Part shown: piece after piece, positions 31,109-34,152 of the stretch
Layout: every line of letters starts with the position of its first letter
How positions within the stretch are numbered: the first letter of the stretch is position 1
Source: Candidatus Eiseniibacteriota bacterium
GTDB lineage: Bacteria > Eisenbacteria > RBG-16-71-46
Length of the DNA: 64,000 nucleotides
Direction: 5' to 3'
NCBI GenBank assembly: GCA_033853925.1
Contig: JAWOLC010000001.1
Span: 4,658-68,657, forward strand
Program-made: the position numbers and the translations under genes
The notes under the pieces: model-generated
Database searches by the model: none
Told to the model about the DNA's origin: nothing
The model's input: only the letters and a program-made list of their open reading frames with translations

Positions 31109-31711
31109 TTGCGCCACACAAGCTCGCGCTCGCGCGTCCTGCCGCTCGGACGACGGCGCCGAAGGGAGCCTCGCGCCGCGTCGGCGCCGGCACCCTTTGC
31201 CGGTCGCGGCCGCGTTGCCGCGGCACTGGTCCTCGCCTGGCTCCTGCTTCTCCCGCTCGCCTCCACGGCCTCGGCTCGACGCGGCGGCGAGACTTCGCGG
31301 CCCTTGCCCAACTTCCTCCTGCCGACGCGAACCGGCTACGTCTCCCCGGACTCGCTGCGGGGAAAGGTGGTCCTGATCGACTTCTGGGCGTCCTGGTGCG
31401 GGCCGTGCCGCCAGTCGTTTCCGTGGATGAACGACGTCTACTCCCGGTACGCCGCGCAAGGCTTCCGGGTCGTGGCCATCGACCTGGACAAGAGCCGGGA
31501 CCTGGCGGACGAGTTCCTGGCCGAGCATCCCGCCACGTTCACCGTGGCCTTCGACCCGGCGGGGAAGACGGCCGAAGCCTTCGACGTGTCGGCCATGCCG
31601 ACGAGCTACCTGGTCGGCCGGGACGGCCAGATCCTCTACTCCCACGCGGGATTCGATCCCCGACGGACCGCGTCCCTCGAGAACCAGATCCAGGAGGCGT
31701 GCAGGCAATGA
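31109..31711 (+). CDS. TlpA/ResA-like periplasmic thiol:disulfide oxidoreductase (thioredoxin fold). The start is uncertain.
   Basis: WASWCGPCRQ (the WCGPC redox motif) preceded by signal-like VAAALVLAWLLLLPLASTASA. The stop overlaps the next gene's ATG. Confidence 0.7.
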   Translation: MRHTSSRSRVLPLGRRRRREPRAASAPAPFAGRGRVAAALVLAWLLLLPLASTASARRGGETSRPLPNFLLPTRTGYVSPDSLRGKVVLIDFWASWCGPCRQSFPWMNDVYSRYAAQGFRVVAIDLDKSRDLADEFLAEHPATFTVAFDPAGKTAEAFDVSAMPTSYLVGRDGQILYSHAGFDPRRTASLENQIQEACRQ

Positions 31712-31944
31712 AGCGAAGCGGGAAGAGAGTCCTGGGAGCCGCGCTGCTCCTCGTTCTGGCCGCGGCGAGCAGCGGGTGCGCGGCGATGTCGGTGCGGCCC
31801 TGGGACAGGGATCTCCTGGCCCAGAAGAAGATGCGCCTCGATCCCTCACCCATGATCAACTCCGTGGACGACCACGTCTACTTCAGCAAGGAAGGATCCA
31901 CCGGGGGGCAGAACGTCGGTGGCGGGGGCTGCGGGTGCAACTAG
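31708..31944 (+). CDS. DUF4266-family small lipoprotein
   Basis: 78 aa. Lipobox LAAASSGC, then VRPWDRDLLAQKKMRLDP, YFSKEGSTGG and the terminal GGGCGCN, which are the hallmark motifs of DUF4266. Confidence 0.65.
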   Translation: MKRSGKRVLGAALLLVLAAASSGCAAMSVRPWDRDLLAQKKMRLDPSPMINSVDDHVYFSKEGSTGGQNVGGGGCGCN

Positions 31945-33221
31945 ACCCCGCGGGCCGCATCGTCTCCGTGCGGCAACGGCTGAGCGCCGCAGCCTGCGTC
32001 CTCCTGGCCGCCGGCGTGCCCGCGGGGGCGCGGGCGGACCCTGCCGGCGCCGCCGCTCCCGACACCGCGGCCTGGCAGCTCGACGCGACGGGCCTCATCT
32101 ACGGCGAGGAGAACCGCGCGAACGTGGTCGAGCCCGTGGCTCGCCTCACCCGTCTCTTCCCCGACGGCCAGACCCTGTCGGGACAGTTCACCATCGACGC
32201 GATCAGTGGGGCTTCGCCCACGGGAGCCTTGCCTTCGGGACAGGCCCAGACGACCACGAGCGCCTCGGGCACGGTGACCACCATCCCGGCGGGGCAGATA
32301 CCCACCAAGCCGTTCCGAGACCTGCGAGGCGCGGTGGACCTGGAGTGGCAGCGGCCTCTCGGCAGCCTGTTCACCGCCACGACCGGGGGACACTTCTCGC
32401 GGGAGAAGGACTACCAATCCCTGGGCGCGAACGTGAAGTTCTCCCTGGACGTCCTTCGCCGCCTGGCCACGCTCACCGCAGGCGTGGGGTACAACCGCGA
32501 CGGGGTCTTTCCCGTGGGGGGCACGCCGCCCGGACTGTCCGATGGTACCGTCATCCTCACGACCGCTCCCAATCCGAAGCGGGTCACGACGGGAGTCGTC
32601 GGCCTCTCGCGGGTGCTCACCCGGCGCTGGCTCGTGGGGGTGGACGCCTCGCGAACCTCGGAGCGCGGCTATCTGACCGAGCCGTACAAGGTCGTGAGCG
32701 TGGTGGACTCCGTGTCCGGACTCCCCATTGGCCAGCTCACGGACAGCCGTCCCTCCACGCGCAGCCGCAACGACGTGCTCGCCAGCTCCGTGTACCACCT
32801 GACCGACGACGTGATCTACGCCTCGTACCGGTACTACTGGGACGACTGGGGGGTTCGCTCGAACACGTTCGACGTCAAGTACCGGCACGAGCTGCCGCAG
32901 GGCACGTACGTCGAGCCCCACCTGCGCGTCTACACGCAGACTCCAGCCCGATTCTTCCGCTTCGGCCTCGTCCAGGGAGCGCCGCTCCCGGCCTTCGCCA
33001 CGAGCGACGACCGCCTGGGGCCCCTGCGGACGGCGACCCTCGGAGCCACCTTCGGCTTCCACATCCCCGACCAGCCCGGGGACTTCACCGTGCGGGGGGA
33101 GTACATCCGCCAGTGGGGTCGGGGGCACCCCGCCGACGCTCTCGGAGCCATGCGCCAGTTCGATCTCTTCCCCGCTGAGAACATCGGCTCGCTGGTGGCC
33201 GGATACTCGGTCCAGTTCTGA
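31935..33221 (+). CDS. DUF3570-family protein (predicted secreted/outer-membrane beta-rich protein)
   Basis: GTG at 31935 (or 31971) gives a signal peptide RLSAAACVLLAAGVPAGARA. The roughly 425-aa product is rich in alternating Y/W/T/S residues. It sits between the DUF4266 and ApbE genes, as in the conserved DUF4266-DUF3570 pairing. Confidence 0.55.
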   Translation: MQLDPAGRIVSVRQRLSAAACVLLAAGVPAGARADPAGAAAPDTAAWQLDATGLIYGEENRANVVEPVARLTRLFPDGQTLSGQFTIDAISGASPTGALPSGQAQTTTSASGTVTTIPAGQIPTKPFRDLRGAVDLEWQRPLGSLFTATTGGHFSREKDYQSLGANVKFSLDVLRRLATLTAGVGYNRDGVFPVGGTPPGLSDGTVILTTAPNPKRVTTGVVGLSRVLTRRWLVGVDASRTSERGYLTEPYKVVSVVDSVSGLPIGQLTDSRPSTRSRNDVLASSVYHLTDDVIYASYRYYWDDWGVRSNTFDVKYRHELPQGTYVEPHLRVYTQTPARFFRFGLVQGAPLPAFATSDDRLGPLRTATLGATFGFHIPDQPGDFTVRGEYIRQWGRGHPADALGAMRQFDLFPAENIGSLVAGYSVQF

Positions 33222-33228
33222 GGCTCGC

Positions 33229-34152
33229 GTGTCCACGGTGCCTCGGCTCTCCGCTGCCGCCAGCCACGGCTCGACGTCGCTGCTGCGGGTCGGTGACTAT
33301 TTCGCCGGCCACTTCTCGGCGATGGCCAGCCCCTGCGAGGTGCTGGTGGACACGGACGATCGCGGCGAGGCAGCCCGGGCGCTCGCGGCGGCGCGCAGCG
33401 AGGCGGCGCGAATCGAGCGGAAGTACAGCCGCTACCGCGCGGACAACCTCGTCCACCGCCTGAACCACGCGGCCGGACGGCCCGTCGCCGTGGATGCGGA
33501 GACCGCGCGGCTCCTCGACTACGCCGCCGCCTGCCACGAGATGTCGGAGGGGTCGTTCGACATCACCTCGGGCGCGCTGCGGCGCGTCTGGAAGTTCGAC
33601 GGCAGCGACCGGGTGCCCACGGCGGAGGCGGTGGGGGACGTGTTGCGGCTGGTGGGCTGGGAGCGGGTGACCTGGGCGGACTCCGTGCTGCAGATGCCGG
33701 CGGGCATGGAGATCGATCTGGGTGGGATCGGCAAGGAGTACGCCGTGGACCGCGCCGCGGCCCGCGTGGCGGCGCGCACGGACGCCGCCTTCCTCGTCAA
33801 CTTCGGCGGCGACCTCTTCGCGCGCGGTCCGCGCCGCGGGAATCGCTCCTGGGGCGTCGGCGTCGACGACCCCGCTCAGACGGGCGAGGCCACGCGGCTC
33901 CAGATCGAGCTCACCCGGGGTGGCCTGGCCACGAGCGGGGACGCTCGGCGCTACCTGCTCTGGCAGGGCAGGCGCCTGGGCCACATCCTGAATCCGAAGA
34001 CCGGCTGGCCCGTGGAGGGCGCGCCCCACTCGGTGACGGTCCTCGGCCCCACTTGCCTCGAGGCCGGGACGCTCTCCACCCTCGCCTTCCTGCATGGACC
34101 GCGAGCCCGCGACTTCCTCGCCGGCCAAGGGGTCCAGTTCTGGATCCTGTGA
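33229..34152 (+). CDS. apbE: FAD:protein FMN transferase (flavin transferase ApbE)
   Basis: 307 aa, with typical ApbE-family segments (LRVGDYFAGHF..MASPCEVLV ... ITSGALRRVW ... MEIDLGGIGKEYAVD ... LVNFGGDLFARG ... VGVDDP ... LATSGDARRY). Confidence 0.85.
   Translation: MSTVPRLSAAASHGSTSLLRVGDYFAGHFSAMASPCEVLVDTDDRGEAARALAAARSEAARIERKYSRYRADNLVHRLNHAAGRPVAVDAETARLLDYAAACHEMSEGSFDITSGALRRVWKFDGSDRVPTAEAVGDVLRLVGWERVTWADSVLQMPAGMEIDLGGIGKEYAVDRAAARVAARTDAAFLVNFGGDLFARGPRRGNRSWGVGVDDPAQTGEATRLQIELTRGGLATSGDARRYLLWQGRRLGHILNPKTGWPVEGAPHSVTVLGPTCLEAGTLSTLAFLHGPRARDFLAGQGVQFWIL

Follow-up and report, generated by a model that had tools for sequence, protein, structure and literature searches.

The closest described relatives of the locus studied here come from the survey of Méheust, Huang, Rivera-Lugo, Banfield, and Light (eLife 2021), who mined the gene neighbourhoods of apbE, the gene for the flavin adenine dinucleotide (FAD):protein flavin mononucleotide (FMN) transferase, in 31,910 genomes (PMC8238504). 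One kind of cluster combines ApbE with a DUF3570 protein, a thioredoxin-like protein, and a DUF4266 protein, and was found 316 times without and 227 times with a gene for DsbD. The DUF3570 protein of Chlorobium luteolum was flavinylated on co-expression with its cognate ApbE, and the signal was lost only if the serines of both of its [S/T]GA[S/T] motifs were mutated. It was further noted that the C-terminal CXC motif of DUF4266 "may undergo redox cycling" and that the VIT1 iron transporter is present in 25 clusters, and a hybrid thioredoxin/flavin system fed by DsbD was proposed, the function of which was called uncertain (all PMC8238504). A full-text literature search for DUF3570 or DUF4266 returns essentially this one study, plus a passing mention elsewhere. 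Here, we analyze a four-gene locus at positions 31109-34152 of a 64-kb stretch of DNA from a Candidatus Eiseniibacteriota bacterium (contig JAWOLC010000001.1; 72% GC), which we refer to in its entirety as the window and whose numbering is used for all nucleotide coordinates. The module is an ordinary stand-alone copy of the DUF3570 flavinylation cassette, already known since 2021, and because no DsbD gene lies nearby, it belongs with the 316 published clusters that lack one. We hold its identity as such a cassette, together with the flavinylation step that is predicted for the window protein, to be very likely.

The locus comprises four open reading frames (ORFs) on the + strand, positioned as an earlier reading of this DNA made without database searches (hereafter the sequence-only reading) had placed them. 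They are given below with three features inside them:

31109..31711, + strand: TlpA/ResA-like thiol:disulfide oxidoreductase, longest ORF, TTG start, 200 aa (Pfam Redoxin, 1.4e-20)
31708..31944, + strand: DUF4266 predicted lipoprotein, 78 aa (PF14086, 4.6e-20, full model)
31935..33221, + strand: DUF3570 protein, GTG start, 428 aa (PF12094, 6.7e-85, model positions 2-425 of 427)
33229..34152, + strand: ApbE FAD:protein FMN transferase, 307 aa (PF02424, 2.1e-66, 224.6 bits against a cut-off of 25.6)
31935..31944, + strand: 10-nt overlap of the DUF4266 and DUF3570 genes, which holds the GTG start codon of DUF3570
32196..32216, + strand: predicted ApbE flavinylation motif D88-A-I-S-G-A-S94 (DAISGAS) in DUF3570, from translation and alignment
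32250..32270, + strand: conserved block T106-T-T-S-A-S111-G112 in loop L2 of DUF3570, counterpart of the second Chlorobi SGAS motif and non-canonical here

The genes are tightly packed: an ATGA overlap at 31708 joins the TlpA-like gene to the DUF4266 gene, the 10-nt overlap follows, and a gap of 7 nt separates DUF3570 from ApbE. This bears out the proposal of the sequence-only reading that the four genes form one operon, with the small correction that it had put the gap before apbE at 8 bp. Its domain assignments (thioredoxin, DUF4266, DUF3570, and ApbE) hold as well, being backed by strong Pfam matches; the hidden Markov model search that it had suggested for PF14086, PF12094, ApbE, and thioredoxin places both middle genes in DUF4266 and DUF3570. 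The matches of DUF4266, DUF3570, and ApbE span nearly the whole length of the models, and the NCBI gene calls for the contig contain the same 428-, 78-, and 307-aa products. NCBIfam has no model for either DUF4266 or DUF3570. The TlpA-like protein and ApbE both score under every NCBIfam equivalog cut-off, so they are members of their families rather than orthologs of named enzymes. A scan of 30600-34700 for sigma-70 promoters and intrinsic terminators gave none, and such a scan is uninformative in a lineage with 72% GC.

DUF3570 carries the sequence DAISGAS at residues 88-94, although the sequence-only reading had spotted no [S/T]GA[S/T] acceptor motif in the module. An exhaustive search of 1.84 billion representative proteins yielded 1,688 representatives of the DUF3570 family, and the window protein was aligned with the 131 full-length sequences among the best 150 of these (29-56% identity). 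Asp88, Gly92, and Gly97 occur in 132/132 sequences, and residue 94 is Ser or Thr in 131/132; within a set of 79 close homologs, D88 and G92 never vary, and S94 hardly does. Because DAISGAS is near-invariant across the family, Ser94 is the predicted FMN attachment residue. The window SGAS (aa 91-94) aligns with the first SGAS/TGAS motif of the Chlorobi DUF3570 proteins. A second site was mapped by locating relatives of the TlpA-like structure 3gl3 (see below) and comparing the two Chlorobi loci thus found, whose DUF3570 proteins have two SGAS/TGAS motifs each. The second of these aligns with T106-TTSAS-G112 of the window protein, a stretch that reads T-x-P-S-G in most relatives: S111 and G112 are near-invariant, position 109 is S, T, or R and not G, and 99 of the 132 sequences have Pro at position 110. 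Exactly one match to [ST]G[AS][ST] is present in 90 of the 131 representatives. On this pattern, the window DUF3570 probably carries one FMN, and a second FMN at Ser111 cannot be predicted.

Conservation was analyzed in 80 related loci, taken from one genome per species, with DUF3570 proteins 48-63% identical to that of the window. The underlying search returned hundreds of relatives; the best match among the loci is 63% identical. The loci come mostly from metagenome-assembled genomes of Candidatus Eisenbacteria, Krumholzibacteriia, Thermoanaerobaculia, and Acidobacteriota, and a few are labelled Myxococcaceae, Verrucomicrobiia, Bacteroidota, and others. The four genes occur in the same order in 69 of the 80, so the co-conservation that the sequence-only reading had offered as a check on its proposal held. 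Eleven loci are incomplete: eight lie at a contig end, two have no detectable thioredoxin, and one has no ApbE. All-against-all clustering of the flanking ORFs of the 80 loci revealed no further conserved flanking gene, the next best cluster being present in 16/80. The four-gene arrangement is far beyond chance, and the cassette is a self-contained four-gene unit in variable surroundings; that the four genes are inherited as a unit is strongly supported. The DUF3570 family as a whole forms ~1,700 clusters at 50% identity, which are spread over Acidobacteriota, Eisenbacteria, Chlorobi, Myxococcota, and other phyla. Three partial cassettes could show which parts are dispensable: two Eisenbacteria loci (L045 and L052) keep DUF4266-DUF3570-ApbE, but no TlpA-like gene could be detected in 7.8 kb of upstream sequence, and a third locus (L046) keeps TlpA-DUF4266-DUF3570 with no ApbE downstream.

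An AlphaFold2 model of DUF3570, built from an alignment of 79 homologs, has a predicted local distance difference test score (pLDDT) of 88.1 and a predicted template modelling score (pTM) of 0.84, and scores are low in the signal peptide region alone. The model contains 16 long antiparallel strands, connected by turns of 2-6 residues that alternate with loops of up to 29 residues, and one face of the strands is moderately hydrophobic while the other is highly charged. The chain starts with a Sec-type signal peptide (about aa 1-34) and ends in ...YSVQF, with Phe as the terminal residue. Export by the Tat route was considered and rejected, as the N-region contains R-x-[RK] and no twin arginine. 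DUF3570 thus displays a signal peptide, an even number of amphipathic strands, the alternation of turns and loops, and the C-terminal aromatic residue, by which outer-membrane barrels are recognized. The structure prediction, which the sequence-only reading had recommended in order to decide between barrel and non-barrel, hence comes out, with good confidence, on the side of the barrel: the predicted fold of DUF3570 is an outer-membrane β-barrel of 16 strands. The insolubility of recombinant DUF3570 (PMC8238504) fits this fold, and genes for a lipid A acyltransferase and a SurA-like chaperone in the window indicate a diderm cell. In the searchable literature, no paper calls DUF3570 an outer-membrane barrel. 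In the model, Ser94 is located at the end of barrel strand 3, where the long loop L2 begins, that is, at the long-loop end of the barrel, and the family-wide conserved blocks HFSREKDYQS, RGYLTEPYK, RYYWDDWGVRS, and PHxRxYxQ are found at this same end. By outer-membrane convention, the long-loop end is either exposed at the cell surface or folded into the lumen.

An ApbE that serves exported substrates is normally a periplasmic lipoprotein; that of Klebsiella pneumoniae, which flavinylates the soluble fumarate reductase, is cytoplasmic and has no signal peptide (PMC12052999). The N-terminus of the window ApbE has neither a signal peptide nor a lipobox: its domain begins at aa 35, the 34 residues before it are non-hydrophobic, and no start codon is present upstream of 33229 in the ApbE frame. 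For comparison across the related loci, each protein was scored by the hydropathy of the best 11-residue stretch in its longest possible N-terminus. ApbE has a median of 1.26, compared with 2.78 for TlpA, 2.68 for DUF4266, and 2.19 for DUF3570, and a value of at least 2.0 is reached by one of 64 ApbEs, a hydrophobic N-terminus being absent in 63 of the 64 loci. In about one third of the related loci, the nearest in-frame stop on the upstream side lies fewer than 40 codons ahead of the ApbE domain. In two Chlorobi ApbEs, the domain stands at the very N-terminus, and in-frame stops are found 12 and 26 codons before the respective start codons. The closest relatives of the window ApbE in the PDB are TM1553 and other ApbE structures (phmmer 8e-37 to 1e-23), and its NCBIfam equivalog score of 102, compared to a cut-off of 498, indicates that it is not the enterobacterial ortholog.

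Given the lack of an export signal on ApbE, flavinylation of the barrel precursor probably takes place in the cytoplasm, before export. Modification of the motif in the unfolded DUF3570 chain, followed by export, is probably the simplest way to read the N-termini, and such pre-export flavinylation would be the most unusual feature of the system. In Escherichia coli, a DUF3570 protein deprived of its signal peptide was flavinylated in the cytoplasm and was recovered mostly in the insoluble pellet, from which it was purified after denaturation (PMC8238504); this is compatible with modification of an unfolded target. One 717-aa representative (P0255) consists of a DUF3570 barrel, ~25 non-hydrophobic residues, and then an ApbE domain. 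It may result from loss of a stop codon, from misassembly, or from a true fusion; if real, it bears on the site of ApbE action.

DUF4266 is predicted to be a bacterial lipoprotein on account of its signal peptide and lipobox, with lipidation at Cys24 (nt 31777-31779; window context ...LAAASSG-C24). The lipobox [AGS]-G-C is present in 78/78 relatives from the related loci, and the lipobox Cys is also found in Chlorobi. The mature protein, of ~55 mostly conserved residues, closes in a Gly-rich tail with the sequence GGGCGCN (CGCN at nt 31930-31941), which is identical in the same 78 relatives and in Chlorobi. The description of a 78-aa lipoprotein with a GGGCGCN tail in the sequence-only reading is therefore accurate. 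The DUF3570 start codon (GTG) is built into the DNA that encodes this tail: its first base is the wobble base of the final Gly codon, and its TG comes from the final Cys codon. In the 79 loci that have a CGCN-stop tail, this position reads ATG in 45, GTG in 28, TTG in five, and CTG in one. Third codon positions in the related genomes are ~90% G/C (GC3), and the retention of a start codon in 78 of the 79 loci in spite of this points to selection for translational coupling. The conserved "MQL" start of DUF3570 is likewise explained by its overlap with the CGCN-stop codons. Translational coupling of DUF4266 and DUF3570 is strongly supported by this pattern, and suggests that the two proteins form a stoichiometric pair. 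A search with the concatenated proteins revealed no natural DUF4266-DUF3570 fusion among the best 120 matches.

The first protein of the cassette has all of the hallmarks of TlpA/ResA/DsbE reductases: a thioredoxin fold, a CXXC motif (WCGPC at aa 96-100, nt 31394-31408), a cis-Pro loop (MPT at aa 163), and an export signal, in that its N-terminus is hydrophobic and would serve as a signal or anchor. Its translation start is uncertain and may be downstream of the TTG. The protein matches Redoxin, AhpC-TSA, Thioredoxin_8, and Thioredoxin in Pfam, and not PF13899; its scores for the NCBIfam ResA and DsbE equivalogs and subfamilies are all under the cut-offs, which places it in a distinct subfamily. 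Its closest solved relative is 3gl3, a 'putative DsbE' from Chlorobaculum tepidum (E 1.4e-44, ~58% identity, including DFWASWCGPCRQSFPWMN), close homologs of which form the first cassette gene in the two Chlorobi loci (L081 and L083). In these loci, a full-length DsbD gene directly follows ApbE, and PF13899 matches the C-terminal domain of DsbD.

The best explanation of these data, which we consider about as probable as its negation, is a relay that carries electrons from thiols to flavin and ends in an outer-membrane flavoprotein, and the envelope redox system with a flavinylated partner predicted by the sequence-only reading fits the evidence. In such a relay, ApbE would move FMN from FAD to the serine of the DxxSGAS motif of DUF3570 (Ser94 here), acting in the cytoplasm on the unfolded barrel precursor, which would then leave through Sec and be inserted by BAM. 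Reducing equivalents would be brought into the periplasm by a DsbD/CcdA-type protein whose gene lies elsewhere. This protein would reduce the WCGPC motif of the TlpA-like protein, which would hand the equivalents over, by thiol-disulfide exchange, to the two CGC cysteines in the Gly-rich tail of DUF4266. This tail may reach and reduce the barrel-bound FMN, and the flavin would turn the two-electron currency of thiols into electrons for an acceptor at or beyond the outer membrane, with metals such as Fe(III) being the leading guess. The linkage of the cassette to DsbD favours this reductive direction. The full relay, with direction and acceptor included, falls slightly short of an even chance. 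We regard as doubtful the more specific picture of a new type of outer-membrane redox device, namely a haem-free, covalently flavinylated 16-stranded barrel that is loaded with FMN by a cytoplasmic ApbE before Sec, into which the tail of the co-translated DUF4266 threads, and which takes electrons from periplasmic thiols (supplied by DsbD via TlpA) to the outer-membrane surface or across that membrane.

Several points count against the relay. Pfam identified no DsbD/CcdA protein among the five neighbours on either side and the majority of the remaining long ORFs of the window, and tblastn gave none in the complete window or in the 8 kb to each side of the 80 related loci. Which way electrons flow, and to what acceptor, is a guess. 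The position of Ser94 with respect to the membrane is a prediction drawn from the secondary-structure pattern, and the contact between DUF4266 and DUF3570 is one drawn from gene coupling. We know of no case in which an already flavinylated chain passes through Sec. In the window DUF3570, the counterpart of the second site flavinylated in the Chlorobium protein is degenerate; moreover, the C. luteolum protein is the only DUF3570 for which covalent FMN has been shown, and flavinylation, localisation, and redox function in the window clade are predictions.

The evidence separates the relay only weakly from three alternatives, which concern metal handling, the direction of electron flow, and modification of the DUF4266 tail. 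The CGC motif of DUF4266 might bind a soft metal (Cu(I) or Fe), with the TlpA-like protein keeping its cysteines reduced, as TlpA does for ScoI/CoxB, and the flavinylated barrel acting as a channel for reductive uptake or efflux of Fe(III) or Cu(II). Copper handling does employ CXC motifs and proteins of the TlpA family, the barrel fold of DUF3570 resembles substrate channels, and immediately upstream of the cassette in one Chlorobium locus lie genes for multihaem cytochromes and a Cyc2-like haem-porin. However, two cysteines by themselves make a weak metal site, genes for metal transporters or metallochaperones are neither conserved beside the cassette in the 80 loci nor present beside it in the window, and multihaem ORFs adjoin it in only three of the 80 Eisenbacteria/Acidobacteriota loci. 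We consider metal handling unlikely. The same components would permit electrons to flow the other way, the barrel FMN taking them, in the manner of Erv/Ero1, from the CGC dithiol to O2 or another oxidant, while DUF4266 and the thioredoxin make or isomerise envelope disulfides. A CGC peptide described by Woycechowsky and Raines in 2003 reportedly has a fairly oxidising, PDI-like potential, and in the window clade no DsbD is encoded nearby as a source of reductant. Against this oxidising direction, which we think quite improbable, stand the reductant (TlpA/ResA/DsbE) type of the thioredoxin, the anaerobic character of Chlorobi and many other host lineages, and the linkage of the cassette to DsbD, a dedicated importer of reductant, in Chlorobi and in 227 published clusters (PMC8238504).

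Another option is that there is no relay, and that the terminal cysteines of DUF4266 are modified or anchored, comparably to the GCGC signature of MYXO-CTERM signals or the CXC ends of Rab proteins, with the thioredoxin keeping them reduced beforehand. A preprint by Haft describes the GCGC motif in MYXO-CTERM signals and notes the DUF4266/DUF3570/TlpA neighbourhood beside some JDVT-CTERM proteins (10.1101/2023.06.07.544157). No CPBP/Rce1-like protease or lipid transferase is conserved near the cassette in the 80 loci, though, and this option has in our view a very small chance of being right. A MYXO-CTERM-like tripartite sorting signal in DUF4266 was considered separately and rejected, as neither a transmembrane segment nor an Arg cluster follows the cysteines. 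The version of events in the sequence-only reading, where the module holds no acceptor motif and the unidentified ApbE substrate is another protein or DUF4266, is scarcely tenable. DAISGAS is conserved family-wide in DUF3570, DUF4266 contains no [S/T]GA[S/T] motif, and a DUF3570 homolog is flavinylated by its cognate ApbE (PMC8238504), which together identify DUF3570 as the substrate.

As a discovery, the locus adds little, because the cluster, its distribution, and the relation of ApbE to its substrate were published in 2021. The statement of the sequence-only reading that no function had been assigned to DUF4266 or DUF3570 was outdated for the same reason (PMC8238504). That reading had also named identification with a known, characterised pathway as an outcome that would count against it; this applies to the cluster and the flavinylation step, both of which are published, and does not apply to the physiological role, which is not. 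The remaining interest lies in this physiological role of a widespread cassette, in the barrel fold, and in the signal-less ApbE; neither the fold nor a cytoplasmic cassette ApbE is discussed in the searchable literature. Two testable questions follow: is the system an outer-membrane flavoprotein conduit that serves as an alternative to porin-cytochrome complexes, and does flavinylation take place in the cytoplasm, with passage through Sec and BAM thereafter? Either answer would bear on extracellular electron transfer, on how uncultured bacteria of soils and sediments reduce metals, and on the rules of cofactor insertion for exported proteins.

The Chlorobi loci have surroundings of their own. 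Directly upstream of the cassette, both carry genes for a cytochrome b, an ~870-aa multihaem cytochrome c, and a cytochrome c (L081:1-7430 and L083:1020-7511), and L083, which extends further upstream, also contains Rieske and ferredoxin genes. Positions 6159-7430 of L081 encode a 423-aa protein with an N-terminal CAACH haem motif, no Pfam match, and a C-terminal Phe, which has the look of a Cyc2-type fused cytochrome-porin. These cytochrome neighbours hint that, in Chlorobi, the cassette may be linked to extracellular electron transfer. Between DUF3570 and ApbE, one Chlorobium locus further encodes a 570-aa Big_5/SWM-repeat protein (L081:10353-12065), whose C-terminus is Gly-rich and hydrophobic (...GGGGGAGVAVAGVGGLALLAWVLF) and which contains VVSGAST internally.

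In the window, the cassette is surrounded by genes for an S8 protease, an ABC-2 transporter pair, a YciI-like protein, a TPR protein, a Cys-rich protein, and a sigma-54 activator, and the remainder consists of housekeeping genes. The protease, three genes upstream (26575-28839, + strand), is of the subtilisin family, with a bacterial Ig-like domain and a C-terminal extension resembling a sorting domain, and is not co-conserved with the cassette. The Cys-rich protein, 2.5 kb downstream (36676-37164, + strand), is a predicted secreted protein of 162 aa with no Pfam match, whose Cys-rich IVLYCGCCPWSHCPNV resembles a rhodanese-type active-site loop; it is not kept beside the cassette in related loci. 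A 1480-aa frame at 34168-38610 on the - strand was rejected as a high-GC artefact, antisense to the TPR, Cys-rich, and sigma-54-activator genes. The real gene at its 3' end (~34168-34470) encodes the 100-aa YciI-like protein (Pfam 7e-07) and is convergent with apbE. Elsewhere on the + strand, long ORFs with coding-like GC3 and no Pfam match at 1e-5 are located at 2529-4964, 10067-11578, 42445-43371, and 49799-51755, and a 1478-aa ORF at 57100-61533, also with coding-like GC3, fell outside the Pfam scan.

Compared with known systems, the window cassette is closest to the published cluster, with which it shares all four gene families, DUF3570 as the ApbE substrate, and a DUF4266 protein with a C-terminal CXC motif (PMC8238504). 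It differs in that the paper names a PF13899 thioredoxin, whereas the window protein matches Redoxin, AhpC-TSA, and Thioredoxin_8, and in that the window DUF3570 has one canonical [S/T]GA[S/T] motif where the tested Chlorobium protein has two. Neither the barrel fold nor the signal-less ApbE is discussed in that paper. The characterised ApbE substrates NqrC/NqrB, RnfG/RnfD, NosR, PplA, and DUF2271 resemble the predicted DUF3570 flavoprotein in carrying FMN in phosphoester linkage on the Ser or Thr of a Dxx[ST]GA[ST] motif and in serving extracytosolic electron transfer. They are, however, soluble FMN_bind domains or inner-membrane subunits (FMN_bind and NqrB/RnfD folds) rather than a predicted outer-membrane barrel, and the ApbE involved is normally a periplasmic lipoprotein rather than an apparently cytoplasmic enzyme (PMC12052999). 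The Klebsiella pneumoniae ApbE also lacks a signal peptide (PMC12052999), but its substrate stays in the cytoplasm, while the substrate here has a signal peptide and a predicted barrel fold. With the pathways leading from DsbD/CcdA to TlpA, ResA, or CcmG, the cassette has in common an exported WCxPC protein of thioredoxin fold with a cis-Pro loop and, in Chlorobi, a terminal DsbD gene; the target, in contrast, would presumably be the CGC tail of DUF4266 and then a flavin, and not an apocytochrome c or a copper protein.

As for the predicted barrel, the 16-stranded barrels of PgaA, BcsC, and PelB, which function in polysaccharide export, show 8-11% identity to DUF3570, a resemblance of fold class only, and DUF3570 has no TPR or periplasmic domain. 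The MtrAB porin-cytochrome conduit differs in having a haem protein threaded through the barrel, as opposed to covalent FMN on the barrel itself, as proposed here. Finally, LptE-LptD and RcsF-OmpA/C/F offer a parallel for DUF4266 and DUF3570, since there, too, a small lipoprotein is encoded and made with a large barrel, and by analogy, a plugged or threaded arrangement of the two cassette proteins would be plausible.

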